Shown in pieces: positions 107 through 62,967 of a stretch of DNA of 64,000 nt. Position 1 is the first letter of the stretch. Every line of letters starts with the position of its first letter. Below the pieces are notes generated by a model. The model was not told the origin of the DNA. It was given only the letters and a program-made list of their open reading frames with translations, and made no database searches. The translations under genes and the position numbers were made by a program. The stretch is from an uncultured Pseudomonadales bacterium (GTDB lineage: Bacteria > Patescibacteriota > Microgenomatia > UBA1400 > MFAQ01), in contig CAZPFY010000001.1 of assembly GCA_964586045.1 (NCBI GenBank), positions 154 through 64,153 of the forward strand, given 5' to 3'.

Positions 107-150
107 GGCGGAGATTGCTTCGGTTCAGAGTACTGAAACTCGCAATGACG
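107..150. mobile_element. MITE/RPE-like repeat, right-half copy (GGCGGAGATTGCTTCGGTTCAGAGTACTGAAACTCGCAATGACG)
   Basis: Same family as 59500..59604. It is intergenic, upstream of the rho promoter. Confidence 0.6.
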
Positions 151-3109: not shown

Positions 3110-4657
3110 TTATTTGGGTGTTGGGTAGGTGAAGGAGGATTCGAGGCTGGTGGAGAGGGTTTGGCCGAAGAAGTTGAGAGTTTGGGGGGAGCTTGGAAAG
3201 CCATTTTGTTTGAGGAGAGTAAGGGAGTAATCGCAGATAGTGTTGGGGAGGGGATGGATTGCCGCGGCCGACCCAAAGTCGGCCTCGCAATGACGATTTG
3301 GGAGGGAGTAGGAGAGGTTAATTTCACTCGTGTTACCGGCGAGGGTAAGATGCCAAAAATTTACGATCTTAAATTTTTGATTGGAGGTATTGGCATAGGT
3401 TGCCGCACTATCCCCCGGATCCAGGTCCGGGGCTAAAGGCTGGGACGCAATGACTGGTGTTTGGTTGATGAGGACGTCGGGGGAGAAACCGGCGGAGGTG
3501 GTGGCTACTTCGGTATGAGAGATGTTGATGTCGGTGGCGTTTTGGGGCAGATAGAGGCGTAGGAAAGCGATGTAGTGGCCACCGTATTGAAGGGGTGGGT
3601 TGGGGTTGGCCTCGGGGGAGGAGTTTTGGAACTGGATGTTTACTTGGTGCTTAACTTGTATGGATTGCCACGTCGGAGTACCTCCTCGCAATGACGGACT
3701 GGGGTTCTGCTTAGTGGCAAGGCTGTCCGGAATGACAGAAATGATGTGGGTGGTGTGGCGAGTGACGTAGGCGTTGGCCTTGTTAGCGCCAAGATTGACT
3801 TCAACTAAACCAAAATGGTCAAAAGAACTGGGTTGATATTCACCAGCGAATTTTTGAGAGATGAGAAAATTTTGAAAATTGGAATTGGTGCTATTGAGGA
3901 CGATGTTTTGATTTTTTAAATCGGTATAAATTATTTTGGTGATCTGATATTTTTTGGAAAGACTAAGGGATTTTATTTTTTTGAATGTTGCGGTGCCAAC
4001 TGCGTGCAGAGCATCGGCTTTTTGGGTGGAGCCGGGGAAAAAGTTGAGTTCGGCTTTGCCCTGGAGGAATAAATAGAGATTGTCGGGAGTGATAGTAGCG
4101 TTGTATTCGGAAACGGTAACTGTGCCAATGAGATTAAATATTTTTTTAATGGTGGAGAGATTGATTAGGCCAAGAATGTTGGGATTGACCTCCTTACCCT
4201 TTTCTAAAAACCAACGAATGGTGGTAGCGGTGGTGGGAAAGTTGGGGTCCCAGTCGGCATTGGCTAACTCCCAAGTGCCGTGGCCAAAGGCTTGCTGGAT
4301 AGGATCTGGTGGCTTAACGTAGCCGTCTAGTTGGCCATTGGGGACGTAGATGTCGTGAAATGAAATGCTAATATCGTCATTGTGAAGAACAGAGTTCTGA
4401 AGCAATCCCCGACGCGGAGATTGCTTCGTCGTTTCACTCCTCGCAATGACGGCTTTGGCGTAGGAACCGGCAAAGCCACCATTGGCGCGAGCTTCGGTAT
4501 CGTTACCTAGAAGAAAGAGATAGGTGGTGGGGGAATTTTTGCCTAATAAATAATTTATATATGGCAAAAAAGGATTCAAAAACTCAAAAACTCGAAAACT
4601 CAAAATGATGAGAATTGTAATTATTAGAAAAGTGGTGAGGAGAAGTTTTTTCTTCAC
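3110..4657 (-). CDS. DUF4012-like membrane-anchored protein carrying four in-frame repeat-element insertions
   Basis: 515-aa ORF with an N-terminal TM helix. LFLLGNDTEARANGGFAGSYA resembles the DUF4012 signature. It contains four copies of the TCGCAATGACG-type repeat and one AAAACTC tract, all in frame. Confidence 0.55.
   Translation of the reverse strand: MKKKLLLTTFLIITILIILSFRVFEFLNPFLPYINYLLGKNSPTTYLFLLGNDTEARANGGFAGSYAKAVIARSETTKQSPRRGLLQNSVLHNDDISISFHDIYVPNGQLDGYVKPPDPIQQAFGHGTWELANADWDPNFPTTATTIRWFLEKGKEVNPNILGLINLSTIKKIFNLIGTVTVSEYNATITPDNLYLFLQGKAELNFFPGSTQKADALHAVGTATFKKIKSLSLSKKYQITKIIYTDLKNQNIVLNSTNSNFQNFLISQKFAGEYQPSSFDHFGLVEVNLGANKANAYVTRHTTHIISVIPDSLATKQNPSPSLRGGTPTWQSIQVKHQVNIQFQNSSPEANPNPPLQYGGHYIAFLRLYLPQNATDINISHTEVATTSAGFSPDVLINQTPVIASQPLAPDLDPGDSAATYANTSNQKFKIVNFWHLTLAGNTSEINLSYSLPNRHCEADFGSAAAIHPLPNTICDYSLTLLKQNGFPSSPQTLNFFGQTLSTSLESSFTYPTPK
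3250..3295. mobile_element. MITE/RPE-like repeat, partial copy inside the DUF4012-like ORF (in frame)
   Basis: GGGGATGGATTGCCGCGG...CTCGCAATGACG, near-identical to the 7467..7509 copy. Translated as ...SLPNRHCEAD... on the minus strand. Confidence 0.6.
3441..3456. mobile_element. degenerate MITE/RPE-like repeat terminus (GGGACGCAATGACTGG) inside the DUF4012-like ORF
   Basis: Terminal motif only. Weak. Confidence 0.3.
3662..3697. mobile_element. MITE/RPE-like repeat, partial copy inside the DUF4012-like ORF (in frame)
   Basis: GGATTGCCACGTCGGAGTACCTCCTCGCAATGACGG, translated as SLRGGTPTW. Confidence 0.55.
4399..4452. mobile_element. MITE/RPE-like repeat, partial copy inside the DUF4012-like ORF (in frame)
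   Basis: GAAGCAATCCCCGACGCGGAGATTGCTTCGTCGTTTCACTCCTCGCAATGACGG, translated as VIARSETTKQSPRRGLLQ. Confidence 0.6.
4576..4605. repeat. AAAACTC heptamer tandem tract (about 4 units) inside the DUF4012-like ORF
   Basis: CAAAAACTCAAAAACTCGAAAACTCAAAA, translated on the minus strand as FRVFEFLNPF. Confidence 0.7.
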
Positions 4658-6582: not shown

Positions 6583-6836
6583 TTATCGTTTCAACAAAAC
6601 CATTTATAAGGCAACTAGCTGATTTGATTCGGAAAAATAATAAATATAAAATTAAGGTGGCAAGGATATTGAAGTTAATGGATTTTGACCTTAGACATCC
6701 TTCTTTAAGAATTCACAAAATAAAAGGAGTAGACTACTATTCTGTGTCTGTAGACATGAAGATTAGAATACTCTATGAAAAAGATAGCAATATGATTCGT
6801 TTAATTGAGATAGGTAATCATGATGAAGTTTATTGA
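6579..6836 (+). CDS. RelE/ParE-family toxin-like protein
   Basis: 85 aa. It is translationally coupled to the upstream RHH gene. The C-terminus KIRILYEKDSNMIRLIEIGNHDEVY resembles RelE/ParE toxins. Confidence 0.5.
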   Translation: MIIVSTKPFIRQLADLIRKNNKYKIKVARILKLMDFDLRHPSLRIHKIKGVDYYSVSVDMKIRILYEKDSNMIRLIEIGNHDEVY

Positions 6837-7596
6837 AGAAATAATTAAGTGGGGGAAGCTGACACCAATATATGATTTGTTGGGGAAGCGGTCGTATGCC
6901 CAGAGCGGGGAGGATGTGGTGGTGGATGCTATTTTGAATCGACAGAAGAGAGGCTTTTATGTAGACGTGGGGGCATATCACCCCAAAGTTTTTTCGAATA
7001 CTTATTTGTTTTATAAACGGGGATGGAAAGGGGTTTGTGTTGAGCCAAACCCGGGGGCAAAAATACTTTTTGAGATTGTGAGACTGAGAGATAGGTTTGT
7101 GGGGTGCGGGGTGGGGGAAAAAACTCAAAAACTCAAAAACTCAAAAACTCAAAATAATGTGATGGAATATTATGTTTTTGGGGAGGGGGCGACAAATACA
7201 TTTTCGAAAAAACAAAGAAATGAAAATATACGATCTTCAAGGAGACTCCTTGAAGTTAAAAAGATTCCGGTGAAAACCTTGAAGGAGATTTTGGATGAGA
7301 ATGTGCCAAAAGGGCAAAAGATTGATTTGATGAGTGTGGATGTGGAAGGGATGGATTTGGAAGTATTGAAAAGTAATGATTGGAAAAAATATCGACCGAA
7401 GGTGGTGATTGCGGAAGATATGACCGGCGTCATCGCGAAGCGTGAAATGCTGTGGCGATCCAGAAAGGGGATGGATTGCCACGGTTCGAGTACGAAACTC
7501 GCAATGACGAATGATAGTGTTGTTGGTTATTTGGTTGGGAAGGGGTATAGATTGGTAGGGATGACGGGGTATTCGATGATTTTTAGAATCGGCTGA
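6820..7596 (+). CDS. FkbM-family methyltransferase carrying an in-frame heptamer tract and a repeat-element insertion
   Basis: GFYVDVGAYHP, VCVEPNP and IDLMSVDVEGMDLEVLKS match the Methyltransf_21/FkbM pattern. The AAAACTC x4 tract at 7128-7155 and the repeat at 7467-7509 are translated in frame. Confidence 0.65.
   Translation: MMKFIEEIIKWGKLTPIYDLLGKRSYAQSGEDVVVDAILNRQKRGFYVDVGAYHPKVFSNTYLFYKRGWKGVCVEPNPGAKILFEIVRLRDRFVGCGVGEKTQKLKNSKTQNNVMEYYVFGEGATNTFSKKQRNENIRSSRRLLEVKKIPVKTLKEILDENVPKGQKIDLMSVDVEGMDLEVLKSNDWKKYRPKVVIAEDMTGVIAKREMLWRSRKGMDCHGSSTKLAMTNDSVVGYLVGKGYRLVGMTGYSMIFRIG
7128..7155. repeat. AAAACTC heptamer tandem tract (4 units) inside the FkbM-like ORF
   Basis: AAAAACTCAAAAACTCAAAAACTCAAAAACTCAAAA, translated as KTQKLKNSKTQN. 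Confidence 0.75.
7467..7509. mobile_element. MITE/RPE-like repeat, partial copy inside the FkbM-like ORF (in frame)
   Basis: GGGGATGGATTGCCACGGTTCGAGTACGAAACTCGCAATGACG, translated as RKGMDCHGSSTKLAMT. Confidence 0.6.
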
Positions 7597-28000: not shown

Positions 28001-31000
28001 GCTAGGATTGTTGCTTATTCCGCCCGTGCCACCGTTGTAGCCGGCAGAGTTTGTGTTGACAGTAGTTCCGGTGGGAACAGTTACGGTGCCGCTAGCGCGG
28101 AAGAACATAACACCACCTTTGGGAGCGGTCCAGACTGAGGCGGTAAAGTCAGTTCCGGCATTGGAGAGAGTAACGTCGGTGTAATTGGGAACACGTTGGA
28201 GCATGACACGTTGATTGGTGGTGGCGGTACCAAGATTGGTGTCGTTGCCTGGATCATCGCCGTAGGTTTTATTTTTGGCTGTTGTAAAAGTAATGGTTGA
28301 GGTAGAGACAGAAGCAATTCTTAAAGTTTCGTAGTTGCCAACATTTAAATATTTTGTAGAAGTACCCTGAAGATTGATAAGAAGGACTTCATCGCCGGCG
28401 GATAAACAGCCGGTGGATGGGGTAGTGGAAAGGGTAGCAGTCGTGGGAGTGAGAGCGGTTACTGAATAATTGACAGCGTCTCCACCATCGGCGCAAGAGC
28501 GACCAGTAATCGAATTGGCGGTATTGATGTTGGTGTCAGTAGTGATAGCGATGGCACCATCAGAACCGGTACCATAAACATAAGTGCTACTGAGGGCAAT
28601 ATTGGTAGTTTTGAGTTTGTTGGTTGATGACGAAGTGGTATTTACCATAGCCAGATCCTGGTTGGTGGTTGTAGTCCAGTCAGAGATTTTTTTCCAAAGT
28701 GAAGTCACTGTATCGTAGAACCAACCGGTAAGAGAAAGGTCATTTGTGTTTTGATTGTGAGCAATTTCAACGTAACCACCACTTAAAGTTGCCGATTGAG
28801 TGGAGTAAGCGGTCATATCCATGGCAAGGCGGTGCCAGACAGAGTCTTGGCCATACATGAAGAGACTGCCGGTGTTGCCAATGGTGTGAACGTTGTTTAG
28901 ATTTCCAGAAATGGTGGCGCTGTTGTAGTAAATAGATCCAGCAACGCCGGTGGGGATAGCGGTTAAACTTTGGAGGGTAATAGTGCCGGAGTCATTGATG
29001 CGGAATTCGTCGCCACCAGTTGAATTCGTATTAAATGAGAGATACGTAGTTCCAGCGTCACTGATTGTTGATGAGCCAATTAAAGCTGTACCGGTAGTAC
29101 CATTACCAATTGTCAAGGCTGGGTTGGCGGTACCATCTATGGTTAGGGTACTAGAAATTTTAGCGTCTCCATTGACATAAAATTCCATATTGGATGGCAT
29201 CGAATTGGTTGAATCTCCAACTCTTAGATTACTAGTTACATTCCATTGGGTCCCTGCGGTTCCTGTAAGTTGGCGATTGGCAATACTAATTTGTTCGACA
29301 CCCAAGTGGTTGTTGATACCTTGGCTTAGAAATAGATTTTTCCAAGCTGTGCCACTAATGCCCAAAGTTGTTTCATCGTTTGCTCCTGGAACCAGATCGC
29401 CACTGTTTAGGATTTTAAGAAAAGTTAATAAGCCAGCATCACCACCCTGAGAAGTGGCAAAAGATAAATCAGCTCCGTTGAGAACGTTAATGGTTGGACT
29501 TGCTCCTCGGAAAGTAAGAGATCCTGAAGTGGAAGCATCTCCGGCTACATCAAGTTTTGAGGTTGGGGTGGTTGTACCTATTCCAATGTTGCCGGTGCCA
29601 TTGGGGTTGAGGAGAATGTTACCGGTGGTATTGTAGGTGCTGGAATTTCCGAGAGTTAAAGTTTGGCGGCGGGTTGTTCCCAAAGTTCCATTGCCGGTGA
29701 GGTAGGTTGTTCCGGCGATACTGGCAACTGGGGTGCCAAGATTGTTGTTTAGAAAAGAAAAGTTGGCACTGAGTGTTGACTGGCCACCGACGAGTAAATC
29801 AAGGGTAGAGTTTTTGGGGTAGATGGCCCCGTTGCTTGAAAGCCAATTTTCGGCAATGTTTTGGTTAGTTATTTCAGTGTCGAGATCTTTGAGGACGCCT
29901 TGAACAGTGAGAGAGTTGCTGTTTGAAAATTCATCGAAAACACCGATTAAGTAAGCACCACTGTCGTTGTTGGCAGTAGATTCGGCAAGGGTGGTGGTGC
30001 CACCAAAGATTAAATTGGCGGCGGAATTGATTTGAAGGCTGCTGGTATTGGATATGTATACGTTGCCTCCTGCGGACTGAAGGCTGAGGTTGCCAGCCAC
30101 ATCGCTAATGGAGTGGGCAACGCCATTGATCATGTTAATGGCGCCAAGATTACTAATATTAAATTTGGTGATACCAGAGGCTGAAGCACTGAAGAGTGAT
30201 CCTGTGCCGTTTTGATTTACAGTGAGTGCTGAAGTAACAGCAGAACCGGTTGCGGTATTGATGCTAGTACGGCCATCTGCTAAAACCCAAAACTTTGCAG
30301 ATTCAGTTGCCCCGGAAGAAAGTAGAATGAGTTTGCCGCTACCGGTGGCGATATCATTACCAATATATCCTGACAATAGAGAACCAGTTGTCAAATTTGC
30401 ATTTGTAGTTCTAAAAGTGTCTTCGGTAGTAGTGCCGCCAATTGCTAAAATTTGGCCGGACCCAATAGCGTCTGGTTGAATAACAATGTCTCCACCAGAA
30501 TTGGTGGCTGTTGTTAAAGAAATACTTTGGCCCTTGAGATTAAAATTTCCTGATGTTGAAACGATGGATGGTGAACTGGCGGCGATATTAAGATTGCCGG
30601 AGTTGTCAATTACGGGGACAGTGTTGATAGTTGCAGATGCTGACGCAGGATACCCCTGGAGGGTTTCGGAATTGAGGGCGTAGCCGACGGTGGCAATCTG
30701 TTGTCTGGGGGTAAGGGTTTCGGCGCCGACAGTAACTGCTAGGTAAACATCGCGATTATCACTAAAGACAGATTGGGGAATTTCACTGCCACAAACGCTG
30801 TCGCCTATGAGACTGTTAAAAACACCGTCGGAGTCCGGGGTAACAGAACAAGTACCGGTGGTATATAGTTGGCTGCCGGCGGTAAGATGATTCCAAAGTT
30901 TGAAATTGACATTGACGGCAGTGTTAATTGGAGTTCCAGATGAATCGGAGAGTCTGCCCTGGAAAGAAAGTTGTCTGCGGGGGGCGGTTAGAGAGGTGGC

Positions 31001-39458: not shown

Positions 39459-40058
39459 GTGTTAGATAAATTTAAAGATGTTTATCGAAAAACTGGAGAT
39501 TTGGAAAAATGGATGGGTGTTTTTGCGCTGTTGGGTGTGCTTGTTGCCTTTGTTGGCCTTTTTAGAGGTATTCTAGTGTCTCGTCAGGTTCAAATTGAGT
39601 ACCTAAACACAGATAAGAAGACTACAGAGGAAATTAAAATAGTGGTAGACATAGAGGGGGCAGTAAATAAACCGGGGGTGTACGAACTTTTAAATAATTC
39701 TAGGATAAAAGATATTTTGGTCTTGGCTGGAGGATATAGTGAAAAAGCAGATAGAACATACTGCGAAAAAATGATTAATTTGGCTTCAACCTTAAAAGAC
39801 GCTCAAAAAATTTACATCCCTTTTGTTAATGATACCCCGAAGGTGCTAGGGTATACTGAGGCTAATTCAGCTACAAAACTGATCAATATGAACACCGCTT
39901 CTGATAGTGAACTTGATACCCTTTGGGGTATAGGTGAGTCCAGAATAGAGAATATTGTGAAAAATAGACCATACCAAAGTGTCGAAGAGCTCGTTACAAA
40001 AAAAGTTTTTACGAAACAAATTTTGGAAAAAAATAAGGAGATGATAGTGGTTTATTAA
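39459..40058 (+). CDS. comEA: competence protein ComEA (SLBB plus helix-hairpin-helix DNA-binding domains)
   Basis: GTG start. N-terminal TM, SLBB-like VVDIEGAVNKPGVYEL, and a C-terminal HhH MNTASDSELDTLWGIGESRIENIV. Confidence 0.85.
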   Translation: MLDKFKDVYRKTGDLEKWMGVFALLGVLVAFVGLFRGILVSRQVQIEYLNTDKKTTEEIKIVVDIEGAVNKPGVYELLNNSRIKDILVLAGGYSEKADRTYCEKMINLASTLKDAQKIYIPFVNDTPKVLGYTEANSATKLINMNTASDSELDTLWGIGESRIENIVKNRPYQSVEELVTKKVFTKQILEKNKEMIVVY

Positions 40059-40059
40059 C

Positions 40060-41178
40060 ATGCAAAAAAGGGTTTTTGCATTAGTCTTGTTACTTGTTTT
40101 GAGAATTATTATCGGTTTTGTTATTAATGCCAGATACTATCAATTTGAACAAATTAGAGTTACGGGAAAAGTGATCAGAGTGATTCAGATAGATAATAAC
40201 TGCATCATAGATTTGGGAGTATTTAGAGCAAAGATGGAGAACCGATGCGCCTTTAAAAAAGGCGAGTTTGTGAGGGTTGTTGGCAGACCTACAGCTGGTT
40301 TGATAGAGCTTCTTGGGGGTAAAATACTCTTGAACACGGCGATATTTGATTATTCTGAAAATAAGGATTTACTTGTTATGAGATTTGATTTTTGGCAGTC
40401 CACTTTTGGGCGACTGAGAGATTATTGCAGAGAAGTTTACCAAAGATTGTTGCCTAGGAACGAGTCGGCTTTGCTTGCGGGAATAGTTTTGGGGGATAAA
40501 GAAAGTATAGGCTATGATTTTTATCAGAATATGGTGAGAAGCGGAACAATCCATGTGGCTGTGGCCTCTGGATATAACTTGATGCTGGTGGGGGGAGTTA
40601 TTTTGAATTTGTTGTTTTGGATTTTTGAAAGGAAAAAAGCTACGATCTTTGCAGTTTTGGCCATGGCTTGTTATGCGGTTCTGGCGGGGTTTGAGCCACC
40701 TGTGGTGAGAGCTTTGATAATGTCGAGTTTGTTGCTTGTTGGCGCAGTGTTGGGGAGGAAGACAGCCCCTGTTTGGTTTTTAATAATTAGTGCTTGGGTA
40801 ATGCTGGTTTGGGACATGGATTTGCTTTGGAATGTTAGCTTTCAGCTTTCGGTTATGGCAAGTGTAGGGTTAATGGTGTTTGCGCCTTGGGTACAGGAAA
40901 TATTTAGGATAAAGGGGTTGGAGAAGGAAGGAATTGGTTTGGAAAAATTCGGCTTAATAACAACGGTGTGCACTATGTTGGCAACGGCACCAGTTATTTG
41001 GTGGCATTTTGGTAGAATAAGTATAATAGGCGTATTTAGCAATGTTTTTATATTGCCACTTGTCCCTCCAGTAATGATTCTTGGAGTTTTCACACTACTT
41101 ATGCCCGGACTGTTTTTTGTGCCTACTTATGCTCTGGTCCATCTTATGGTTTTGATAATTAACTTTTTTGGAACTTGA
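40060..41178 (+). CDS. comEC: ComEC/Rec2 membrane competence domain (N-terminal DUF4131-like plus Competence domain), a separate ORF from the MBL domain
   Basis: LLAGIVLGDKESIGYDFYQNMVRSGTIHVAVASGYNLMLVGG matches the ComEC competence-domain motif. It is polytopic. Confidence 0.8.
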   Translation: MQKRVFALVLLLVLRIIIGFVINARYYQFEQIRVTGKVIRVIQIDNNCIIDLGVFRAKMENRCAFKKGEFVRVVGRPTAGLIELLGGKILLNTAIFDYSENKDLLVMRFDFWQSTFGRLRDYCREVYQRLLPRNESALLAGIVLGDKESIGYDFYQNMVRSGTIHVAVASGYNLMLVGGVILNLLFWIFERKKATIFAVLAMACYAVLAGFEPPVVRALIMSSLLLVGAVLGRKTAPVWFLIISAWVMLVWDMDLLWNVSFQLSVMASVGLMVFAPWVQEIFRIKGLEKEGIGLEKFGLITTVCTMLATAPVIWWHFGRISIIGVFSNVFILPLVPPVMILGVFTLLMPGLFFVPTYALVHLMVLIINFFGT

Positions 41179-41242
41179 CATAGATATTTTAAACCTATAA
41201 AATACTAGACAATTGAACGTAAATTGAAATTGGGAGGTACAA

Positions 41243-41431
41243 ATGCTGAGAGATTTGGCGGAGTCGCTGTTTTTTTTGGGAATGGTGGTTGTTATTATTA
41301 AGTTCGGTTGGCAGCTGGTAGACTGGATTATGAGCATGCTGTACGTTCTATCTTTTGGATGCTGCCTGGGTATTGTGGCTTTGATTGGGGGAGCCATATA
41401 TTTCTTTGGAAATAGAGAAAACTTTTTTTAA
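41243..41431 (+). CDS. small hydrophobic ORF between the two comEC parts
   Basis: 62 aa, two hydrophobic helices. It may be a remnant of the ComEC membrane region in a different frame. Confidence 0.3.
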   Translation: MLRDLAESLFFLGMVVVIIKFGWQLVDWIMSMLYVLSFGCCLGIVALIGGAIYFFGNRENFF

Positions 41432-41473
41432 TCTCACCTGATTTAGGTGGGATTTTTTGTGGCAAAATAAACT

Positions 41474-42253
41474 GTGGATTGGAAAAAGTGGGGGGTGGTA
41501 ATTGTTCTTCTTTTATCTATTTGGATATATTTTGAGTGGCCAGATAATAAACTGCATGCGGTTTTTTGTGATGTAGGGCAGGGAGACGCAGCCTTAATTG
41601 TTTTGGGTAGATTTCAAGCTTTGGTAGATACTGGGGCGTATGAAGATAAAGTTTTGCAGTGCCTAGCTGATCACGTTCCTTTTTGGGACAGACAAATTGA
41701 GCTGGTTTTTTTGAGCCATGCGGATAAAGATCACGTCGGAGCTCTGGAGGGGATAAAAAAGCATTACAAGATTGGTAATGTAATTAGTAAGGCAAAGGAA
41801 AATGATTTAATAAGATATGGAACGTTATATTTTGAGATATTAAAAGGGAGTCAAAATAATGTGTTGGTACCCATGAGCGGATCGAGTGAATCGAATGAAT
41901 CGTCGATTGTGATGAGAATGGCTTTTGGTAAGCTGTCGGTGCTTTTTACGGGAGATATTGATATGGAGAATGAATTGGCACTGATTGCTAGTGGAGTGCT
42001 AAGGCAAACAGAGGTGTTAAAAGTGTCGCATCACGGCTCTAAGTTTGCAAGTGGCTCTGAGTTTTTGGAAAAGGTTATGCCTAAGTACGCAATTGTCTCG
42101 GTAGGAAAGAAAAATAGTTATGGCCACCCAAGTAGTGATACTTTGATGCGTTTAGACACTGTTAAAACAAAAGTTTTGCGAACGGATTTAATAGGGGAAA
42201 TTGAGTTTGTGAGCGATGGGAGTCGGTTGGTCGGTGTGTCGGCAGATCGGTAA
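41474..42253 (+). CDS. comEC: ComEC C-terminal metallo-beta-lactamase domain protein
   Basis: HAVFCDVGQGDAALIV, FLSHADKDHVGAL and VSHHGSKFASGSEFLEKV form the ComEC-type MBL fold. Confidence 0.8.
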   Translation: MDWKKWGVVIVLLLSIWIYFEWPDNKLHAVFCDVGQGDAALIVLGRFQALVDTGAYEDKVLQCLADHVPFWDRQIELVFLSHADKDHVGALEGIKKHYKIGNVISKAKENDLIRYGTLYFEILKGSQNNVLVPMSGSSESNESSIVMRMAFGKLSVLFTGDIDMENELALIASGVLRQTEVLKVSHHGSKFASGSEFLEKVMPKYAIVSVGKKNSYGHPSSDTLMRLDTVKTKVLRTDLIGEIEFVSDGSRLVGVSADR

Positions 42254-45052: not shown

Positions 45053-45110
45053 GGTAGTATTATAACCTATAGTTGCTAATTTGTCAAGTTGGGGAATTTT
45101 TGGCAAAAAA
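45053..45110 (+). repeat. conserved intergenic motif copy A (GGTAGTATTATAACCTATAGTTGCTAATTTGTCAAG, then TTTTTGGCAAAAAAA)
   Basis: Near-identical ~35-bp motif found four times in the window. It may be a promoter or operator. It is immediately followed by a bidirectional terminator-like hairpin at 45112-45165. Confidence 0.6.
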
Positions 45111-46131: not shown

Positions 46132-46167
46132 GGGAGTATTCTAGCCTATAGTTGCTAATTTGTCAAG
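46132..46167 (+). promoter_or_regulatory. conserved intergenic motif copy B, probably overlapping the promoter of the 46208 gene (TTGCTA, 17 nt spacer, TAGAAT)
   Basis: GGGAGTATTCTAGCCTATAGTTGCTAATTTGTCAAG, with TAGAAT 17 nt after TTGCTA. About 40 nt upstream of the ATG. Confidence 0.5.
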
Positions 46168-50180: not shown

Positions 50181-50386
50181 TGCCAAAATTTAGTTTAAAA
50201 AAAAGAATCCCCGCTCTGGAGCGGGGTTCGGTTGGGGTGAAGTAGGTTGCTTGGCCTAAGTGTCTGTTGTCGCACCGTCGAAACGCAACAGTGGGGCTTA
50301 GCGGGCTCTAATCACACCCTTTTGGGTATGGAAGGAGGGGGAACCTCCTTTTTCGGGGCTGGATTTCCAGCAAAAGTTAAGTTGTA

Positions 50387-50421
50387 GGAGTATTTTATCC
50401 TATAATTGTTTATTTGTCAAC
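50387..50421 (+). promoter_or_regulatory. conserved intergenic motif copy C upstream of the 50525 gene
   Basis: GGAGTATTTTATCCTATAATTGTTTATTTGTCAAC is the same motif as copies A and B. Confidence 0.45.
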
Positions 50422-50524: not shown

Positions 50525-51565
50525 ATGTATTGTATAAGTATGACCATACAAGATCAGATAATAAAAATCGCAACAAAAGAGGGAACTGTTAGGACCGCTG
50601 ATGTTTTAAAGAGTTTAAAGCCTGCGGTAACTAGGGGATACTTGAGTTTAATAATGTCTCGAATGACAAGAGATGGTTTGCTAGTGAAAACAGGATCAAC
50701 TTCAAAGTCTGTATATGCTTTGTATAAAAATGGAGATTTGCTGGGAAATGTCTTTAAAAAGCATTTGGCTAGAAGCACCACAAAAGAACATGAAGTACTG
50801 GATGTGCTTAACAGAAAAGTGCCTTTTTTGTTTAAATTGGATGAAAACTTGAGAAGCATTTTGGATTTTTCTTTTTCTGAAATGTTAAATAACGCCTTAG
50901 AACATTCTGAATCAAAGTATATTGACATTAAGGTATTTGTTGATTCTAAATACCTGAATTTTACTGTGTCTGACCTTGGTATTGGTGTTTTTAAAAATGT
51001 AATGAAGAAGAGGGGTTTGGGGTCGGAATTCGAGGCCATGCAGGATATTTTGAAAGGAAAAACTACCACTCAACCCCATGCACATTCTGGCGAAGGAATC
51101 TTTTTTACTTCAAAAATGGCTGACATATTTGTTTTGGAAAGTTATGGATACTCGATGAGAGTGGATAATATAATTCCTGATATATTTTTTGAGCAAGTTA
51201 AACCGATTAAAAAAGGAACGAGAGTGCATTTTTGCATTAGAAGAGAGACTGATAAACACTTGAAAGATACTTTTATGAACTACGAAACTGATCACGAAGA
51301 TCCCGATTTTGACAAAACAGAGATTCACGTAAAACTATATAAAATAGGCACGGTTTACGTATCTCGATCACAAGCTAGGAGAATTTCATATGGTCTTGAG
51401 AAGTTTAATCACGTTGTTTTGAACTTTGAAAAAGTACCAACTATCGGACAAGCTTTTGCAGACGAGATATTTAGAGTTTTTAAAAATAAATATCCAAATA
51501 TTTTGATTACCTCTATTAATATGAATGAGGCGGTTAAGTATATGGTTAATAGAGCGAGTAAATAG
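50525..51565 (+). CDS. HATPase_c (GHKL, anti-sigma-factor/RsbW-like) ATP-binding protein with N-terminal wHTH-like region and C-terminal STAS-like (DUF4325-like) domain
   Basis: EMLNNALEHS (N-box), VSDLGIGV (G1) and SGEGIFFTS (G2). The C-terminus VVLNFEKVPTIGQAFADEIFRVF is STAS-like. Confidence 0.5.
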   Translation: MYCISMTIQDQIIKIATKEGTVRTADVLKSLKPAVTRGYLSLIMSRMTRDGLLVKTGSTSKSVYALYKNGDLLGNVFKKHLARSTTKEHEVLDVLNRKVPFLFKLDENLRSILDFSFSEMLNNALEHSESKYIDIKVFVDSKYLNFTVSDLGIGVFKNVMKKRGLGSEFEAMQDILKGKTTTQPHAHSGEGIFFTSKMADIFVLESYGYSMRVDNIIPDIFFEQVKPIKKGTRVHFCIRRETDKHLKDTFMNYETDHEDPDFDKTEIHVKLYKIGTVYVSRSQARRISYGLEKFNHVVLNFEKVPTIGQAFADEIFRVFKNKYPNILITSINMNEAVKYMVNRASK

Positions 51566-51568
51566 AAT

Positions 51569-51808
51569 TTATTTTTTTGGCTTGGGGGGGTGTTTGGCCT
51601 CGGATTGTTTGATGCTGGTGCAGATGGGGCAGAGGGTTGGTTTGTCGGTTGACCAGTTTGTCGGTTGACCAGTTTGTCGGTTGATCGGTTTGTCGGTGTT
51701 TCGGAGTTGCTCGTAGACGGAGTAGACAAAAGGATTGCCACAGTTTTCGCATTTTAGAAGTTGGTCTTGCATGAGAGTATTATATCCGCTAAGGGTGGAA
51801 GAGTACAA
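51569..51808 (-). CDS. small zinc-ribbon protein with an in-frame 17-bp tandem repeat expansion
   Basis: CENCGN...CPIC forms the Cys4 pair. The central repeat encodes NRQTGQPTNWSTDKLVNRQT variants. Confidence 0.45.
   Translation of the reverse strand: MYSSTLSGYNTLMQDQLLKCENCGNPFVYSVYEQLRNTDKPINRQTGQPTNWSTDKPTLCPICTSIKQSEAKHPPKPKK
51640..51700. repeat. 17-bp tandem repeat (GTTTGTCGGTTGACCAG, about 3.5 copies)
   Basis: Direct inspection. Copies are at 51640, 51657 and 51674, plus a partial fourth. Confidence 0.85.
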
Positions 51809-51844: not shown

Positions 51845-52570
51845 TTAAATGCGATTGGCAAGCATTTTTTTGTAGTCTGATTCGGAGAGGTAGATGGATA
51901 GACGTTCGTAGTTTTCATCACCGAAAACCGCGCCGTCCCAATCGATACCTAAGAGGTTTTCTTTGAGATATAGACTGTCATCGGTTTCAAAATCTGCCGC
52001 CAAATAGTCCTCGGTAAAAACAACTTCCAAAATGGGATTTTGAAGAGTGTCGTCTTTGAAGAAATCAACGTCCTTTACTCGGAGGCGGAAGGAAACCATT
52101 TCGCCGGTGCAGAGTGTTGTGGAGATCTCGACCAGATCGTTCTCTGAGTCGTAACCATTGATGCTGATTTCTTTTCTGTCGCCGAACTGGAAGAACTTTG
52201 CGATGATCGACATGTTGGTGTAGTCTTCGAGGCCGTTTGCCTTTAACCAGATTTCAAATTCTTCCTCCAGGTTGATGGCAAACTCTTCTTCGTCGCTGGT
52301 GAGTACATCTTCTTCCAAAACTTCTTCTTCGAGAACCTCTTCTAAATCTTCTGTTTCCACAATGGTGCCATTTTCAGCTACATTAACGACAGGTGAAGGA
52401 ATGTTGTACCCCTGAACGTAGCTGGACATATCGCGAGGTTGATTGTACCTTTTTATGGCTAAATAGCCTTGCCAGACGGCGACCCCTACAAGAGCCAATA
52501 CGAAAACGAGGATTAAGAACTGACCAAATCCGGTGCACCAAAATGAGATTGATTCAAGACCACATGACAT
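51845..52570 (-). CDS. membrane-anchored acidic hypothetical protein
   Basis: 241 aa. N-terminal TM (FLILVFVLALVGVAVW), then a Glu/Asp-rich region EEVLEEEVLEEDVL. Confidence 0.5.
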   Translation of the reverse strand: MSCGLESISFWCTGFGQFLILVFVLALVGVAVWQGYLAIKRYNQPRDMSSYVQGYNIPSPVVNVAENGTIVETEDLEEVLEEEVLEEDVLTSDEEEFAINLEEEFEIWLKANGLEDYTNMSIIAKFFQFGDRKEISINGYDSENDLVEISTTLCTGEMVSFRLRVKDVDFFKDDTLQNPILEVVFTEDYLAADFETDDSLYLKENLLGIDWDGAVFGDENYERLSIYLSESDYKKMLANRI

Positions 52571-58646: not shown

Positions 58647-59495
58647 ATGTATGAGACTTTGGAAAGGGATAAGTATAAAAAAGAATGGGAGAGGGTAAAG
58701 CCGGCAATAAAAAATATTTTTTATAAGGGGGATGTAAAGCTGTTGATGGACGAGAAACCAAGGTTGGCAATTGTGGGATCGAGAAGGATGACGGAGTATG
58801 GCGCAAAAATAATTGAAAAATGGATGTCAAAATTTGTTGACAGAGGAATAATAATTGTTTCTGGTTTTATGTATGGAGTAGACCAAAAAGCTCATACGGA
58901 ATGTATAAATAATGGAGGGAAAACGGTTGCGGTTTTGGGGTGGGGAATAGATTGGCAGGTGATGGATGATGATGTAGAAATGTATGAAAAAATATTAGAA
59001 AAAGGTGGATTGATATTGTCAGAATATGAAGGGAGGGCGATACCAGAGTTGTGGAAATTCCCTCAAAGAAATAGAATAGTGGCAGGAATTTGCGACGCTG
59101 TTTTGGTAATAGAGGGAGCAGAAAAAAGTGGCAGTATGATAACTGCAAGGTTGGCAAAACAGTTTGACAAAGTCCTTTTATCCTTACCTGGCCCGGTAAC
59201 GAGTAAGGTAGCCGAGGGAACAAATAATTTAATCAAAAGAGGAGAGGCAAAAATGGTAACGAGTGCGGAGGACGTTTTGAGGGGGATGGGGTTGGAGGAG
59301 GGGCAGATGAGTTTGTTGGGAGAAGTAAAAATTTTGGATCCTATTTTGGAAATTTTGGAAAATGAAAGTAAAAGTGTGGACGAGCTAGCGCGAATTTTGC
59401 GACAGCCGGTGAACGAGGTGCTTATTAAACTTAGCTATTTGAGTTTGAGGGGGTTGGTGAGTGAATCCAACGGAAAATATTTTATTGTGAGTTAG
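58647..59495 (+). CDS. dprA: DNA processing protein DprA (Smf)
   Basis: LAIVGSRRMTEYGAKIIEKW...IIVSGFMYGVDQKAHTECI...VLVIEGAEKSGSMITARLA forms the DprA Rossmann-like domain, with a C-terminal wH-like domain. Confidence 0.85.
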   Translation: MYETLERDKYKKEWERVKPAIKNIFYKGDVKLLMDEKPRLAIVGSRRMTEYGAKIIEKWMSKFVDRGIIIVSGFMYGVDQKAHTECINNGGKTVAVLGWGIDWQVMDDDVEMYEKILEKGGLILSEYEGRAIPELWKFPQRNRIVAGICDAVLVIEGAEKSGSMITARLAKQFDKVLLSLPGPVTSKVAEGTNNLIKRGEAKMVTSAEDVLRGMGLEEGQMSLLGEVKILDPILEILENESKSVDELARILRQPVNEVLIKLSYLSLRGLVSESNGKYFIVS

Positions 59496-59499
59496 CCTT

Positions 59500-59604
59500 G
59501 TCATCGCGAATCTCGTACTCGAGCTGTGGCGATCCCCGCTACACAAGATATCACTCAAAGCTCGGAGATTGCTTCGGTTCGGAATACCGAAACTCGCAAT
59601 GACG
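59500..59604. mobile_element. MITE/RPE-like palindromic repeat element, complete copy (TIR GTCATCGCGA ... TCGCAATGACG)
   Basis: About 105 bp, bounded by imperfect inverted repeats. The internal hairpin TTCGG-AATA-CCGAA is shared with other copies. It is intergenic between dprA and a terminator. Confidence 0.7.
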
Positions 59605-59623
59605 CTTTTTTTTGCATAAAAAA

Positions 59624-59650
59624 ATCCCGCTCTTGGTTATAGCGGGATTA
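59624..59650. terminator. bidirectional rho-independent terminator
   Basis: ATCCCGCTCTTGGTTATAGCGGGAT hairpin with a flanking A-run (5') and T-run (on the minus strand). Confidence 0.7.
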
Positions 59651-60313
59651 CTTGAGGTGATCGGTGTAGTTGGACTCGAGAATTGTCCACATACCAGTTT
59701 CAGAATCGAACTGAACAGTTGTGATGGAGCCAAAGGGGGGGAAATTTTCTTTGTCCCTAAAGGGGTCCATTAGTTGGTGCGGGGTTGGGTTTGGTCCACG
59801 CTCGATAAAAGTTTTTAGTGTTACCTTTACTTGGCTATGGGTATAAACTGCAATTTTTTTGTTAGCGAACTGAGAGTGGCTAAAAGCCTGAAGTATTTGA
59901 CCACCTCGCTGATGAAATTGCCAGTAGGATTCACCCCGATTCATGAAGCGAGAACGGATGTTATCTTCATTTGGATAGTAGACGACATTTCTACGCCACT
60001 GAAAATATTTTTGCAAAGTATCGTCAGTGTAGGGTCTGCCATCCGCTAATGGTCGGCTAATTTCATTTAGTAGGGAATCGGTAATAACACAATACCTTTT
60101 TTTGTGTAGCGTGTTTTTTAGCTCTTTGGCCATTTCTTCTGCGCGTCTGTAGGTACCAGAAAATACCAAGTCGGGTGGGTCATTTTTGAAGTACATAGCG
60201 ACTTTTGAAGCTTGCCGAAAACCTTCTTTACTGAGACTTTCATCCCAGTCGTGCTTTTCATCTTTTTCTGGAGTTCGGCCATGCCGAACGAGATATAGCG
60301 TGGTAACGGACAT
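59648..60313 (-). CDS. histidine phosphatase family protein (phosphoglycerate mutase-like)
   Basis: The N-terminus LYLVRHGRTPEKDE carries the RHG catalytic motif. Confidence 0.8.
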   Translation of the reverse strand: MSVTTLYLVRHGRTPEKDEKHDWDESLSKEGFRQASKVAMYFKNDPPDLVFSGTYRRAEEMAKELKNTLHKKRYCVITDSLLNEISRPLADGRPYTDDTLQKYFQWRRNVVYYPNEDNIRSRFMNRGESYWQFHQRGGQILQAFSHSQFANKKIAVYTHSQVKVTLKTFIERGPNPTPHQLMDPFRDKENFPPFGSITTVQFDSETGMWTILESNYTDHLK

Positions 60314-60512
60314 GGTACCTCCTTATAGATTTGGTTTTTATGGTGCAAAGCTAGTTGGGCGAGTATAGCACATTTGAGGTCAAAATGCAAGTATATAGGG
60401 TATGCGTAGAGGATGTGTACGGGTTAGTTGACTTGAGAAGCTAGGTGTGATATTATAGGGCAATTAGGTTATACATTTCAATATAAATCAAAAAGTTGGT
60501 CTGGAGGCTGAC

Positions 60513-61058
60513 ATGAAGTTAAAAAATAATTTAATTGTATTTTTCGTAGTGCTTTTTCTTGGAGCGTGCGCTCCCACAAAAGCCGATTTGGAGCCTGTTT
60601 CAGAAAAACCCACCTCCTTCGTTTGTTTTTTGCACGGTGAGAAGGTGATTGATACAAATACCTTGCATGGTGCCAGTTACGATCGTGAAACGATCGGCGG
60701 TCTTCGAGACCTGTACTGGATGTGGGAAGATGAAGGCGGTTTTAAGTCTCGGCCGGTGGACAATGGAGAGCTTTCTTGCGCGCAGGAAGGCTTGAGCTAT
60801 TCTGATGTGATAGCACCGTCTGAACCCCTTCAACCCTCAGAAATGGTTTGTACTCAAGATGGGGTTGAAATACTACGCACGACTACCATCGACGGAATGA
60901 CCACACAGAGGGTGTGGATTAATCCAACGGGGGATGATCAGCCTTATGCCTATACTTGGTATGAGGCGGATGGACCGCATTATCTGACCACAGATCAGTT
61001 TAGTGATAATGCAACCTTTGGTAACACTTTGAGGTGTGTGGATATTTCAGTTAAGTAA
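60513..61058 (+). CDS. putative lipoprotein
   Basis: Signal peptide with lipobox LFLGAC. 181 aa. Confidence 0.55.
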   Translation: MKLKNNLIVFFVVLFLGACAPTKADLEPVSEKPTSFVCFLHGEKVIDTNTLHGASYDRETIGGLRDLYWMWEDEGGFKSRPVDNGELSCAQEGLSYSDVIAPSEPLQPSEMVCTQDGVEILRTTTIDGMTTQRVWINPTGDDQPYAYTWYEADGPHYLTTDQFSDNATFGNTLRCVDISVK

Positions 61059-61070
61059 GCTTTGCAAAAT

Positions 61071-61100
61071 GGCTTCGAGATTCTCGAGGTCATTTTTTTT
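61071..61100 (+). terminator. rho-independent terminator
   Basis: GGCTTCGAGATTCTCGAGGTC hairpin followed by ATTTTTTTTT. Confidence 0.65.
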
Positions 61101-61203
61101 GGCATATAATATGGGTTATAGTATCCAAAGTACCCAGCCAACAGCTACCCGACAACAGCTAAAGCAGTTTGACGGGCGGGCGCAGTTTGGCGGGTGATAT
61201 TTA

Positions 61204-62838
61204 TTGAGATACAATAAAATCATGTTGGCACGAATTGAGAGCGTGGCTTGTGTGGGACTAGAGAGTTTTTTGGTGGAGGTAGAAGTGGATGTGGCGGAGA
61301 AGGGCTTCCCCGGGTTTAGTATTGTGGGGCTGGCTGACAAAGCGGTGGGTGAGGCAAAAGAGAGAGTAAAAACAGCCTTGATTAATAGTGGTTTTGAGTT
61401 TCCACAGAAGAAAATAATCGTCAATTTGGCACCGGCCGATCTGCCTAAGGAGGGATCGGCGTTTGATTTGGCGATTGCTATGGGGATTTTGGTGGCTAAT
61501 GGGGATATCGAGATAAAAACTCAAAAAATCGAAAACTCAAAAACTCAAAATATCGCTCAAAACTCGGAGATTGCTTCGGTTCGGAATACCGAAACTCGCA
61601 ATGACGACGTGGAAAGTAGCGATATATTTTTTGGGGAGTTGTCGCTCGATGGGAGTTTGCGACACACCAAAGGGGCACTTTTGGTAGCTCTTTTTGCCAA
61701 AAAAGAGAAGAGGAGGAGAGTGTTTGTGCCGGTATTGTCGGCGAATGAGGCGGCGGTAGTGCCTGGAGTAGAGGTAATGCCGGTGAGGAACTTAAAAGAA
61801 CTAATAGTTCACTTTTTGGGAGATAAGAAGATAAAACCTCTGAGAACAATTGAAATAAAAAGCTTGGTGGAAACGGCGATGCCAGACTTTGACATGGCGG
61901 ATATTGTAGGCCAGGAATCGGCGAAGCGAGCCTTGATGGTAGCGGCGGCTGGGGGACACAATATGCTCATGTCTGGGCCACCAGGATCGGGTAAAACCAT
62001 GCTCTCCAGGGCTTTACCTGGAATAATGCCCCCGATGACCGAGGAGGAGAGTATGGAGGTTACTAGGGTTTACTCGGCTTCGGGATTGATGGAAGCGGGA
62101 GAAGCGATTGTGCGCAGAAGGCCATTTCGGTCGCCTCATCACTCGACGAGCCTTGCTGGCTTAATAGGAGGTGGCAGTAGGCCTATGCCTGGGGAAGTGA
62201 GCCTCGCTCACTTGGGGGTATTGTTTTTGGATGAGATGGCGGAGTTTCCCCGGAGCGTGTTGGAGGCCATGAGGCAACCAATGGAGGATGGGAAGGTGGA
62301 GATATCAAGAGTAGCCGGGAGAATTAGCTATCCTGCGTATTTTCAGCTCATTGCTGCGGTGAACCCGTGCCCTTGTGGCTATTTGGGGCACCCAACTAAA
62401 GAATGTAAGTGTACGAGTAGAGAGGTTGAGAAGTATAAAAGAAGGATAAGTGGGCCTATTTTGGATAGAATAGATTTGCATATCAATGTCCCGGCGGTGG
62501 AGACAGAAAAGATCGTGGGGAATGTAGAAAAGGGAGAAAGCTCTCTGGTGATTAGACAAAAAATTGTCAAAGCGCGACAAATTCAAAGCACAAGGTTTGG
62601 TAAAGGGAAAATTTATTGCAATGCCCAGATGAAAAACAAGCAAGTGAAGGAGTTTTGCGATCTGGATGAGGAGGGGTTAAAAATCCTGAAATTAGCCATG
62701 GAAAAGTACGATCTGTCGGCCAGGGGCTACTTTCGGATTTTAAAGGTGGCCAGGACGATAGCGGATTTGGAGAATAGTGAGAAGATTTTGAGCTCGCATT
62801 TGGGGGAGGCGCTGCAGTACCGGGAGAGGGTGTTTTAG
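61204..62838 (+). CDS. comM: YifB/ComM-family Mg-chelatase-like AAA+ ATPase with an in-frame heptamer-tract plus repeat-element insertion
   Basis: N-terminal Lon-like ChlI domain. Walker A is MLMSGPPGSGKTM. The insertion IEIKTQKIENSKTQNIAQNSEIASVRNTETRNDDVESS lies between the ILVANGDI and FFGELSLDG motifs, which are normally about 10 aa apart. Confidence 0.9.
   Translation: MRYNKIMLARIESVACVGLESFLVEVEVDVAEKGFPGFSIVGLADKAVGEAKERVKTALINSGFEFPQKKIIVNLAPADLPKEGSAFDLAIAMGILVANGDIEIKTQKIENSKTQNIAQNSEIASVRNTETRNDDVESSDIFFGELSLDGSLRHTKGALLVALFAKKEKRRRVFVPVLSANEAAVVPGVEVMPVRNLKELIVHFLGDKKIKPLRTIEIKSLVETAMPDFDMADIVGQESAKRALMVAAAGGHNMLMSGPPGSGKTMLSRALPGIMPPMTEEESMEVTRVYSASGLMEAGEAIVRRRPFRSPHHSTSLAGLIGGGSRPMPGEVSLAHLGVLFLDEMAEFPRSVLEAMRQPMEDGKVEISRVAGRISYPAYFQLIAAVNPCPCGYLGHPTKECKCTSREVEKYKRRISGPILDRIDLHINVPAVETEKIVGNVEKGESSLVIRQKIVKARQIQSTRFGKGKIYCNAQMKNKQVKEFCDLDEEGLKILKLAMEKYDLSARGYFRILKVARTIADLENSEKILSSHLGEALQYRERVF
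61515..61553. repeat. AAAACTC-type heptamer tract inside comM, immediately upstream of the repeat-element copy
   Basis: AAAAACTCAAAAAATCGAAAACTCAAAAACTCAAAAT, translated as KTQKIENSKTQN. Confidence 0.75.
61563..61605. mobile_element. MITE/RPE-like repeat, right-half copy inside comM (in frame)
   Basis: CTCGGAGATTGCTTCGGTTCGGAATACCGAAACTCGCAATGACG, identical over 43 nt to the 59562..59604 part of the intergenic copy. Translated as SEIASVRNTETRND. Confidence 0.7.
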
Positions 62839-62840
62839 TT

Positions 62841-62967
62841 CGTCATTGCGAATCTCGTACTCGAGCTGTGGCAATCTCCGAGGTTGAGTGAAATTTAGCA
62901 GGCGGGGATTGCTTCGTCGTTTTGCTCTCCCGAGTAGATACTCGGGATCCTAGACTCGCAATGACGG
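62841..62967. mobile_element. MITE/RPE-like palindromic repeat element, complete copy (CGTCATTGCGA ... TCGCAATGACGG)
   Basis: About 127 bp with terminal inverted repeats. The internal GGGGATTGCTTCGTCGTTT segment is shared with the 4399..4452 copy. It is intergenic, downstream of comM. Confidence 0.7.

Follow-up and report, generated by a model that had tools for sequence, protein, structure and literature searches.

Short dispersed repeats in the enlarged ComM loop of a Candidatus Collierbacteria genome

The comM gene and its insert

The stretch of DNA analysed here, hereafter the window, comprises 64,000 nucleotides of contig CAZPFY010000001.1 from a member of Candidatus Collierbacteria (Microgenomates, candidate phyla radiation or CPR). 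Near its right-hand end lies a comM/yifB gene (61225..62838, + strand) in which one loop of the protein is enlarged by two short repeats, a tract of imperfect octamers and a palindrome like the REP (repetitive extragenic palindromic) elements. The gene, assigned from the list of open reading frames (ORFs), from Pfam and from a structural match, encodes 537 residues from the ATG at 61225, an in-frame TTG upstream at 61204 being an alternative start (protein of 537-538 residues). ComM is a branch-migration helicase of natural transformation and growth is generally possible without it, so that the preliminary description of this locus, made from the sequence alone, overstated the case in calling comM an essential-type gene. 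Pfam recognises an N-terminal, Lon-like ChlI domain (E = 2.5e-40), the AAA+ domain Mg_chelatase (9.1e-94) and Mg_chelatase_C (6.5e-33), and the protein matches the structure of L. pneumophila ComM (PDB 8rxd) with E = 1.7e-117. Walker A, Walker B and the zinc-finger cysteines are all kept, GPPGSGKT and VLFLDE being invariant in the alignment of ComM homologues. In the hexamer of ComM, the Lon-like ring is built by the N-terminal domain (PMC11612176).

It is in this N-terminal domain that the HMMER alignment to 8rxd is interrupted, residue 97 of the query pairing with residue 98 of the chain and residue 134 with residue 105. Between ANGDI and FFGELSLDG the window protein has about 36 residues, against about six in 8rxd and most Collierbacteria orthologues. 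The extra residues first noticed between ILVANGDI and FFGELSLDG are thus confirmed, at about 30-36, both by the break in the alignment and by 506-residue orthologues with a six-residue loop. As the preliminary description also held, the gene is undisrupted, its ORF running intact across the whole insert; a tryptic peptide, TQNIAQNSEIASVR, would span the latter. The comparison of assemblies which that description proposed returns the same insert-bearing allele, since an identical protein (P0001) is encoded in two further assemblies of groundwater metagenomes, ENA ERZ909580 (megahit) and JGI 3300009031.

In an AlphaFold2 model made with a 60-sequence alignment, the insert lies between a confident helix (residues 77-91) and a strand beginning at about residue 134. 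Residues 100-131 have predicted local distance difference test (pLDDT) scores of 34-37 and no secondary structure, while the rest of the N-terminal domain scores 86-94. This check, too, had been suggested at the outset, and its outcome is a loop, the insert (residues 98-133) being predicted as disordered. The insert does not look like a removable intein or intron: no intein blocks are present in its roughly 36 residues and Rfam finds nothing there, and every genic copy of the repeats is open and in a consistent frame. We infer that the insert is translated and neutral.

At the nucleotide level the insert can be divided into consecutive segments, all on the + strand. A codon alignment with seven orthologues identifies 61504..61515 as the native left edge of the loop, with codons GAT ATC GAG ATA (D-I-E-I). 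The octamer-tract element follows (61515..61556; delimited by Tandem Repeats Finder and the orthologue alignment), reading AAAAACTC AAAAAATC GAAAACTC AAAAACTC AAAATATC(GC) and encoding KTQKIENSKTQNI. Tandem Repeats Finder gives it a period of 8, with AAAAACTC as the unit, 4.5 copies and 85% matches across 61515-61550, beyond which a degenerate continuation reaches about 61556; the repeat unit is thus an octamer and not the heptamer AAAACTC originally proposed. A flank at 61543..61562, ACTCAAAATATCGCTCAAAA, is common only to the copy at 59541, where it reads ACACAAGATATCACTCAAAG and is equivalent to the spacer of a dimer of palindromes lying upstream. The palindromic REP-like element itself, of a type that we call A, occupies 61563..61606 and has the structure CTCGGAG-ATTGC-TTCGGTTCGGAATACCGAAACTC-GCAAT-GACG, folding as a hairpin and encoding SEIASVRNTETRND; on the minus strand it opens CGTC-AT. 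Native sequence resumes over the right edge of the insert (61607..61626, AC GTG GAA AGT AGC GAT ATA), where GTG GAA AGT resembles the ATA GAA AAA AGT of an insert-free orthologous locus, L003.

That the palindrome is a true repeat copy, as first described, is clear from the identity of all 44 nucleotides of 61563-61606 with 59561-59604, an intergenic copy 2 kb upstream; shuffled sequences lead one to expect no such match. Similarity to the region of 59541 reaches 64 nucleotides at 94% (61543-61606). No copy is closer to the one in comM than the dimer to which this region belongs (59500..59604), and the two have in common 20 nucleotides of spacer that are missing from copies in other genomes. 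The relationship between the comM copy and this dimer, 2 kb upstream, is thus a specific one.

The preliminary description saw in GATATCG and CGATAT, on either side of the insert, a short duplicated target. GATATCG (61504-61510), however, encodes part of the conserved G-D-I-E (as GAT ATC G) and has a counterpart in every orthologue including those free of inserts; CGATAT (61620-61625) is inverted relative to it, the sole direct repeat common to the two strings being GATAT. The right-hand string is missing from tract-only alleles and forms part of AGCGATAT (61618-61625), the perfect 8-bp inverted partner of ATATCGCT (61550-61557). The reading as a target duplication is therefore abandoned. The pair ATATCGCT/AGCGATAT brackets the REP at the comM copy and at no other copy compared, and the 131-nucleotide region 61500-61630 folds with z = -2.8, one of 200 shuffles being as good.

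Repeats in ComM orthologues and elsewhere

The loop was compared in 120 ComM homologues aligned with MAFFT, insert types being counted in 66 orthologues. The modal homologue has 506 residues and a six-residue loop, GDI-ELKExG-LFFGE (n = 120), and most of the variation in length sits in a single alignment block, the ComM loop, where about 30 of the 120 sequences carry differing inserts. P0002 and P0004, to which the window protein is most closely related, are without one, as are most orthologues; by the refutation test that the preliminary description had set itself, its view of the insert as a nucleotide-level acquisition and not ancestral protein sequence therefore stands.

Among the insert-bearing proteins, the tract peptide is found alone in P0003 and P0013 (LKTQKIENSKTQND) and also in P0011, P0012, P0023 and P0043. 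The palindromic element is found alone in P0009 (LEIASVRNTETRND) and as a head-to-head pair in P0007 (CHCESRTRAEAIS...GIASVRNTETRND). Other repeats occupy the same loop in P0008 and P0014 (DSCLRRN), in P0018, P0019, P0021 and P0034 (RDESRPYGE) and in P0029 (VRLPHPPRRVRND), and long mosaic inserts are seen in P0015 and P0063. With at least 10 different repeat-derived inserts among the 66 orthologues, the ComM loop can be considered a recurrent hotspot.

The DNA of the orthologous loops gives the same picture. The empty site, as in L003, reads GAT TTG GAG ATA AAG ATA GAA AAA AGT ATT TTT, and codons for G-D-I/L-E/D are present in insert-free alleles as well as in filled ones. L004 and L009 have the exact 37-nucleotide tract of the window at the same codon, followed by GATGAAATTATTAATAGT, and L008 has a diverged tract. 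In L005 the element is present alone and starts at the same nucleotide, GAC ATA GAT TT being followed by GGAGATTGC..., and L006 has an element pair. The window allele corresponds to an L004-like allele with about 54 additional nucleotides (ATCGCTCAAAACTCGGAG...GCAATGAC) at the 3' end of the tract. Since tract and element are each found alone at the loop, the composite is not one insertion, and the single clean event originally envisaged gives way to separate ones.

Nor is the insertion datable in the way that was first supposed. The window comM is 83% identical in nucleotides to L003 and 73-78% to other orthologues, with third positions at 45-63%. The 41-nucleotide element core is nonetheless identical in the window, L005 and L006, whose comM genes are 71-76% identical (third positions 45-53%), and the window, L004 and L009 agree in every position of the 37-nucleotide tract. 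In a rough neighbour-joining tree calculated with the loop masked, insert-bearing and insert-free alleles are repeatedly sisters and insert states are patchy. A clean, datable event is hard to reconcile with such a tree and with repeats 100% identical in genomes whose comM is 73-76% identical; identical repeats in diverged genes and the patchy tree together point to repeated insertion, exchange or homogenisation rather than to simple vertical descent. A vertical history with the tract arriving first and the element later was also considered and is not demonstrable, since the tract shows 100% identity between lineages that the tree does not place as sisters. Recombination is plausible since ComEA, ComEC, DprA and ComM are encoded in these genomes. 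Within the window the natural-transformation set (39459-42253 and 58647-62838) comprises comEA (HHH_3/SLBB), comEC, as a Competence domain plus a separate Lactamase_B ORF, dprA and comM, and the neighbourhood dprA - histidine phosphatase - comM is kept at orthologous loci.

Both repeats are dispersed well beyond comM. The pattern GATTGC-N(10-40)-GCAATGAC occurs eight times in the window where 0.01 occurrences are expected, and a looser scan finds 11 units, at 113, 3257, 3663, 4419, 7429(-), 7474, 59500(-), 59567, 61569, 62842(-) and 62907. They are 31-38 nucleotides long, apart from one 59-nucleotide variant, and all are confined to the first 7.5 kb and last 4.5 kb of the window, none of the family being found in the central 52 kb (7600-59400). 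The ends are conserved as GGRG/ATGG-AT(T/C)GC ... GC(A/G)AT-GACG, and the variable interior usually has a small hairpin of its own, such as GGCCGAC/GTCGGCC at 3257 and TCCCGAGTA/TACTCGGGA at 62907, the folds showing an outer stem of 5 bp, then an internal loop, then an inner stem that varies (4-9 bp). The tag is CGTC in 10 of the 11 units (...ATGACG) and TGTC in the remaining one (...ATGACA), and the stem begins with AT in all of them, as CGTC-AT(TGC/CGC)...(GCA/GCG)AT. The tail at the untagged end is CCA(T/G) in four units and CTCC or CCCC in seven. Six units form three head-to-head heterodimers with their GACG ends outward (7429/7474, 59500/59567 and 62842/62907), and head-to-head pairs are seen in L006 and L010 too. 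Rfam, at the gathering threshold, finds only two tRNAs in the whole window, and a permissive scan of 61400-61720 yields chance matches (E > 2).

The octamer tract behaves likewise as a discrete family, with 11 occurrences against 0.97 expected. Copies of about 35-45 nucleotides with a common 3' end, AAAATRATG, are found at 1921 (after the rho stop codon), at 4569 and at 7115, in the gene of an FkbM methyltransferase, and in other genomes after the comM stop codon of L008 and inside the topoisomerase I (TopA) gene of L032. The copy in the FkbM gene (7115-7158) is in-frame and includes a perfect run of four AAAAACTC units at 7120-7150. On its reverse strand a perfect tract has TGA every 24 nucleotides; the sole antisense genic copy (4569-4608), which codes for part of the N-terminal hydrophobic segment of a DUF4012 protein, has CGA there. 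An origin of the tract by expansion of a dimer spacer was rejected, the motif being missing from the spacers of other dimers.

Six of the 11 palindromic units are inside Pfam-supported ORFs, those of comM, the FkbM methyltransferase and the DUF4012 protein. The FkbM gene (6820..7596, +) contains an in-frame head-to-head dimer at 7429..7508, made up of units 7429-7460 (-) and 7474-7508 (+). Three units on the + strand (3257-3294, 3663-3695 and 4419-4450) are in-frame and antisense in the DUF4012 gene (3110..4657, -), as judged from the window ORF, and each is read in a different frame, as RHCEADFGSAAAI, SLRGGTPTWQS and VIARSETTKQS. Intergenic copies consist of the dimer already mentioned at 59500..59604, between dprA and the histidine phosphatase gene, with a B-type unit at 59500-59534 (-) and an A-type unit at 59567-59603 (+); a dimer directly after the comM stop codon at 62842..62965, with units 62842-62876 (-) and, as the 59-nucleotide variant, 62907-62965 (+); and a unit found by the family scan upstream of rho (113..149, +).

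In other genomes, the exact 37-nucleotide core was searched for among 185,579 species representatives, giving three matches that all belong to one Collierbacteria metagenome-assembled genome, and among JGI metagenomes, giving 20 contigs that collapse to about nine distinct loci. With so few exact matches the subfamily appears narrow, while the wider ATxxC...GxxATGAC(G) family is broad. Other genomes have the A-type element in-frame in leuS and topA, within long, intact and Pfam-confirmed ORFs, and all five genic A-type copies (three in comM, one each in leuS and topA) read (E/G)IASVRNTETRND, with a grand average of hydropathy of -1.40. A stop codon, the TGA of the +1 frame, interrupts one of the six frames of the element, and hydrophobic peptides result from three. 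The same 41 nucleotides are also intergenic, at 59567, L010, L011, L023 and others. FkbM homologues have a baseline of 215-225 residues, without the tract and dimer segments of the window gene, and in many Microgenomates FkbM orthologues various peptides derived from repeats occur at about five positions that recur, for example the tract peptide LKNSRNQELK. The insertion in comM is thus an ordinary instance of a process that appears pervasive, orthologues of ComM, FkbM, TopA and LeuRS bearing a range of inserts at loops used repeatedly.

The individual proteins merit brief description. The Collierbacteria topoisomerase I (L032 64-2283, -) has at least three in-frame repeat inserts, namely the octamer tract KEIKNSKNQKIK, DSGSKPGMT and IASVRNTETRND. 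In the leucyl-tRNA synthetase (L019 5255-7651, +) the A-type element is placed between the CxxC motif and the conserved WIPVPEEELP. Rho of the window (272-1918) has an N-terminal extension whose DNA includes, at 380-428, a decayed 5' half of the element, GCGAAGATTGCTTCGGTCCAGA, encoding AKIASVQT. Its identity to the region around 81-129 is 73%, and it may date from an early in-frame insertion.

The window holds other, different repeats. Two giant ORFs, at 9271-19608 (-) and 22046-31891 (-), encode 3445 and 3281 residues; they share paralogous segments (for example 24316-24411 versus 26626-26721) and have, both of them, long CCACCACC low-complexity runs that are Gly-rich on the coding strand. 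A 36-nucleotide repeat is present three times (45053-45088, 46132-46167 and 50386-50421); its reverse complement, CTTGACAAATTAGCAACTATAGG(T/C)TA(T/G)AATACT, reads as a minus-strand promoter with -35 and -10 boxes close to the consensus. Finally, about 3.5 units of a 16-nucleotide tandem repeat, GTTTGTCGGTTGACCA, are found at 51640-51697, intergenic between 50525..51565 and 51845..52570.

Relation to known palindromic elements

The closest parallel is provided by the REP superfamily tagged with CGTC (Di Nocera, De Gregorio & Rocco 2013; PMC3733652), to which RPE-4 and RPE-6 of R. conorii and dRS3 of Neisseria belong. Its members are palindromes of 20-40 bp with an unpaired CGTC tag at one end (variants TGTC and CCTC), an A-T start to the stem and often a CCA tail, found mostly as head-to-head dimers, with heterodimers common and spacers of 13-45 nucleotides (PMC3733652). 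They are mostly intergenic and downstream of genes, with a subset in-frame in genes, notably those by which DNA is replicated, repaired and recombined; a dedicated transposase is not known for them, and they have been reported from five phyla, mostly from alpha-Proteobacteria (PMC3733652). The units in the window are similar in their tag, AT stem start, head-to-head dimers, combination of intergenic with in-frame genic copies, and lack of an adjacent transposase, and the element fits the CGTC-tagged REP type on these sequence characters. They differ in their host, a CPR bacterium, in having CTCC or CCCC tails as often as CCA, and in a very high genic fraction (6/11).

In-frame insertion of repeats of this type is said to have been first described in Rickettsia, whose Rickettsia palindromic elements (RPEs) were reportedly set out by Ogata et al. 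in 2000, RPE-1 being some 100-150 bp in length. As there, a selfish palindrome is found in-frame in functional genes, adds a peptide to the product and has insert-free orthologues (here of comM and FkbM). The lineage and lifestyle are different, and in the present case several unrelated repeat types are stacked in one loop. The likeness is one of description rather than of sequence comparison, although the CGTC tag is common to RPE-4 and RPE-6.

Similarities are also evident to the REPINs, REPs mobilised by REP-associated tyrosine transposases (RAYTs), for which Bertels and Rainey (2011) and Nunvar et al. (2010) are reportedly the sources. The inverted doublets could form one long hairpin, families are species-specific, and singlets resemble remnants of dimers, the comM copy keeping half of the upstream dimer's spacer. 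In contrast to that system, the tag is CGTC and not GTAG, and no RAYT (IS200/IS605-type Y1 transposase) was found in the 40 window ORFs scanned. [quoted passage not shown] Unlike MITEs, which have terminal inverted repeats of 15-30 bp and a target-site duplication, the present element has neither and is much shorter, homology between copies stopping at GGRG...GACG.

In-frame REP or RPE insertions are established in Rickettsia and in some Proteobacteria and Verrucomicrobia (PMC3733652). A search of our literature library for REPs in CPR, Patescibacteria or Microgenomates, or for the motif strings, found no description.

Origin of the insert

We consider it probable that two elements, a selfish DNA of REP type and a dispersed octamer tract, entered independently of each other a loop of ComM that tolerates lengthening. 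This explanation draws on the identity of the repeats, their presence and absence among orthologues, their separability, the repeated occupation of the loop, the bias in reading frame and the disorder predicted for the insert, all documented above. Two kinds of short dispersed repeat would have landed separately in a permissive, putatively surface-exposed loop of the N-terminal Lon-protease-like domain, the first a discrete element of about 40 nucleotides made of imperfect AAAAACTC octamers, the second a REP-like palindrome, also of about 40 nucleotides, whose ends are conserved (GGRG-ATTGC ... GCAAT-GACG), whose inner hairpin varies, whose tag is CGTC and which usually stands between genes in head-to-head pairs. 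Translation would yield a peptide of about 30 residues, hydrophilic and disordered. The elements may multiply as selfish DNA, genic copies presumably persisting only if in-frame, free of stop codons, tolerable as peptide and placed in an extendable loop; such a filter, possibly together with a target preference, would make the ComM loop a recurrent hotspot across Collierbacteria.

Several results count against independent insertion of selfish elements. The hairpins of single units are not significantly more stable than those of shuffled sequences (z from -1.8 to +0.8). Pfam reveals no transposase or RAYT in a scan of 40 window ORFs that took in neither of the giant ORFs nor any DNA beyond the window, and no target-site duplication or direct repeat is seen at the element ends; because of these two negatives, mobility is deduced from distribution alone. 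Families CGTC-1 to CGTC-4 have stems of 8-9 bp and loops of 4-5 nucleotides (PMC3733652), whereas the window units have a bipartite stem (5 bp of ATTGC/GCAAT, or ATCGC, or ATTCC), an inner hairpin and a length of 31-59 nucleotides; with a geometry unlike that of the four published families, we file the element as a new family of the CGTC REP kind. Lastly, gains, losses and recombination are inseparable in the rough neighbour-joining tree.

Of the alternatives, the one that fares best, though we think it unlikely, is that insertion is targeted, the DNA of the loop being preferred by the mobilising machinery or by microhomology-mediated template switching over and above mere tolerance by the protein. 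Every insert begins within one or two codons past G-D-I, the tract of L004 and the element of L005 start at the same nucleotide (after GAYATAGATTT), and in L007 the site, although empty, has the sequence TTGGAGATTG, the same as the element start. Moreover, the 3' ends of tract (AAAATGATG) and REP (GCAATGACG) share AATGA at the junction, and a single loop receives most of the inserts in a 506-residue protein. Nevertheless, the roughly five hotspots of FkbM are all at alignment gaps or loops, which tolerance alone predicts, and no common target motif is evident at the filled sites in leuS, in topA or between genes.

Decidedly less probable is the model of the preliminary description, in which tract and element are one composite mobile unit that arrived by a single transposition, cut-and-paste or copy, with a duplicated target. 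Not only are the two directly adjacent in comM but the order of tract then REP recurs in FkbM P0125 and P0156 and in ComM P0015 and P0063, and the copy at 59541 has a tract-like flank of 20 nucleotides. However, the same loop can hold the tract alone (L004, L009 and L008) or the element alone (L005); the supposed target strings, one being conserved codons, are inverted and their right-hand member is absent from tract-only alleles; and no common flanking duplication accompanies other element copies.

Two further ideas seem to us very improbable, and about equally so. According to the first, slippage by one 8-nucleotide unit would shift the frame and so toggle ComM and transformation by phase variation. 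Eight is not a multiple of three, the ORF contains 4.5 copies, tract length varies between orthologues, and the FkbM gene even has a perfect four-unit tract (7120-7150). In comM, on the other hand, the tract is imperfect (85% matches), which suppresses slippage, its 37 nucleotides are identical in three genomes, tracts are intergenic too, and none of the 120 homologues is a frameshifted allele, though full-length hits would miss such alleles. The second makes the insert a functional peptide under selection, for example an adaptive linker or an interaction motif, as the single reading frame of five out of five genic copies and the strict conservation of nucleotides across genomes might suggest. 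Selection on the peptide alone, however, would not hold synonymous sites identical; the same 41 nucleotides are intergenic, the closest relatives lack the insert, disorder is predicted and unrelated inserts occupy the same loop. An assembly artefact, a repeat-induced chimera of the kind by which short dispersed repeats can mislead assemblers of metagenomic sequence, is scarcely credible given an insert exactly in-frame, flanks collinear with orthologues, analogous inserts in many independent assemblies and, above all, the identical allele in the ENA and JGI assemblies.

Of more interest than the single insertion are the recurrence of a hotspot used by several elements and the high fraction of genic copies. 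Repeat inserts of this sort would explain much of the length heterogeneity and many of the 'orphan' low-complexity segments of CPR proteins, and annotators and structure predictors should be cautious about repeat-derived segments there. They also offer natural insertion-tolerance maps of conserved proteins, and many pairs of filled and empty sites for the study of how CGTC-tagged REPs move. A bolder proposition, which we hold to be rather doubtful, is that CGTC-type REPs and the octamer tract are currently mobile in Collierbacteria and directed to DNA targets, with the comM loop a preferred site. Were it true, the small genomes of Collierbacteria would be a system in which to identify the mechanism of CGTC REP mobilisation, and repeats in genes of competence and DNA metabolism (comM, topA) would feed back on recombination.

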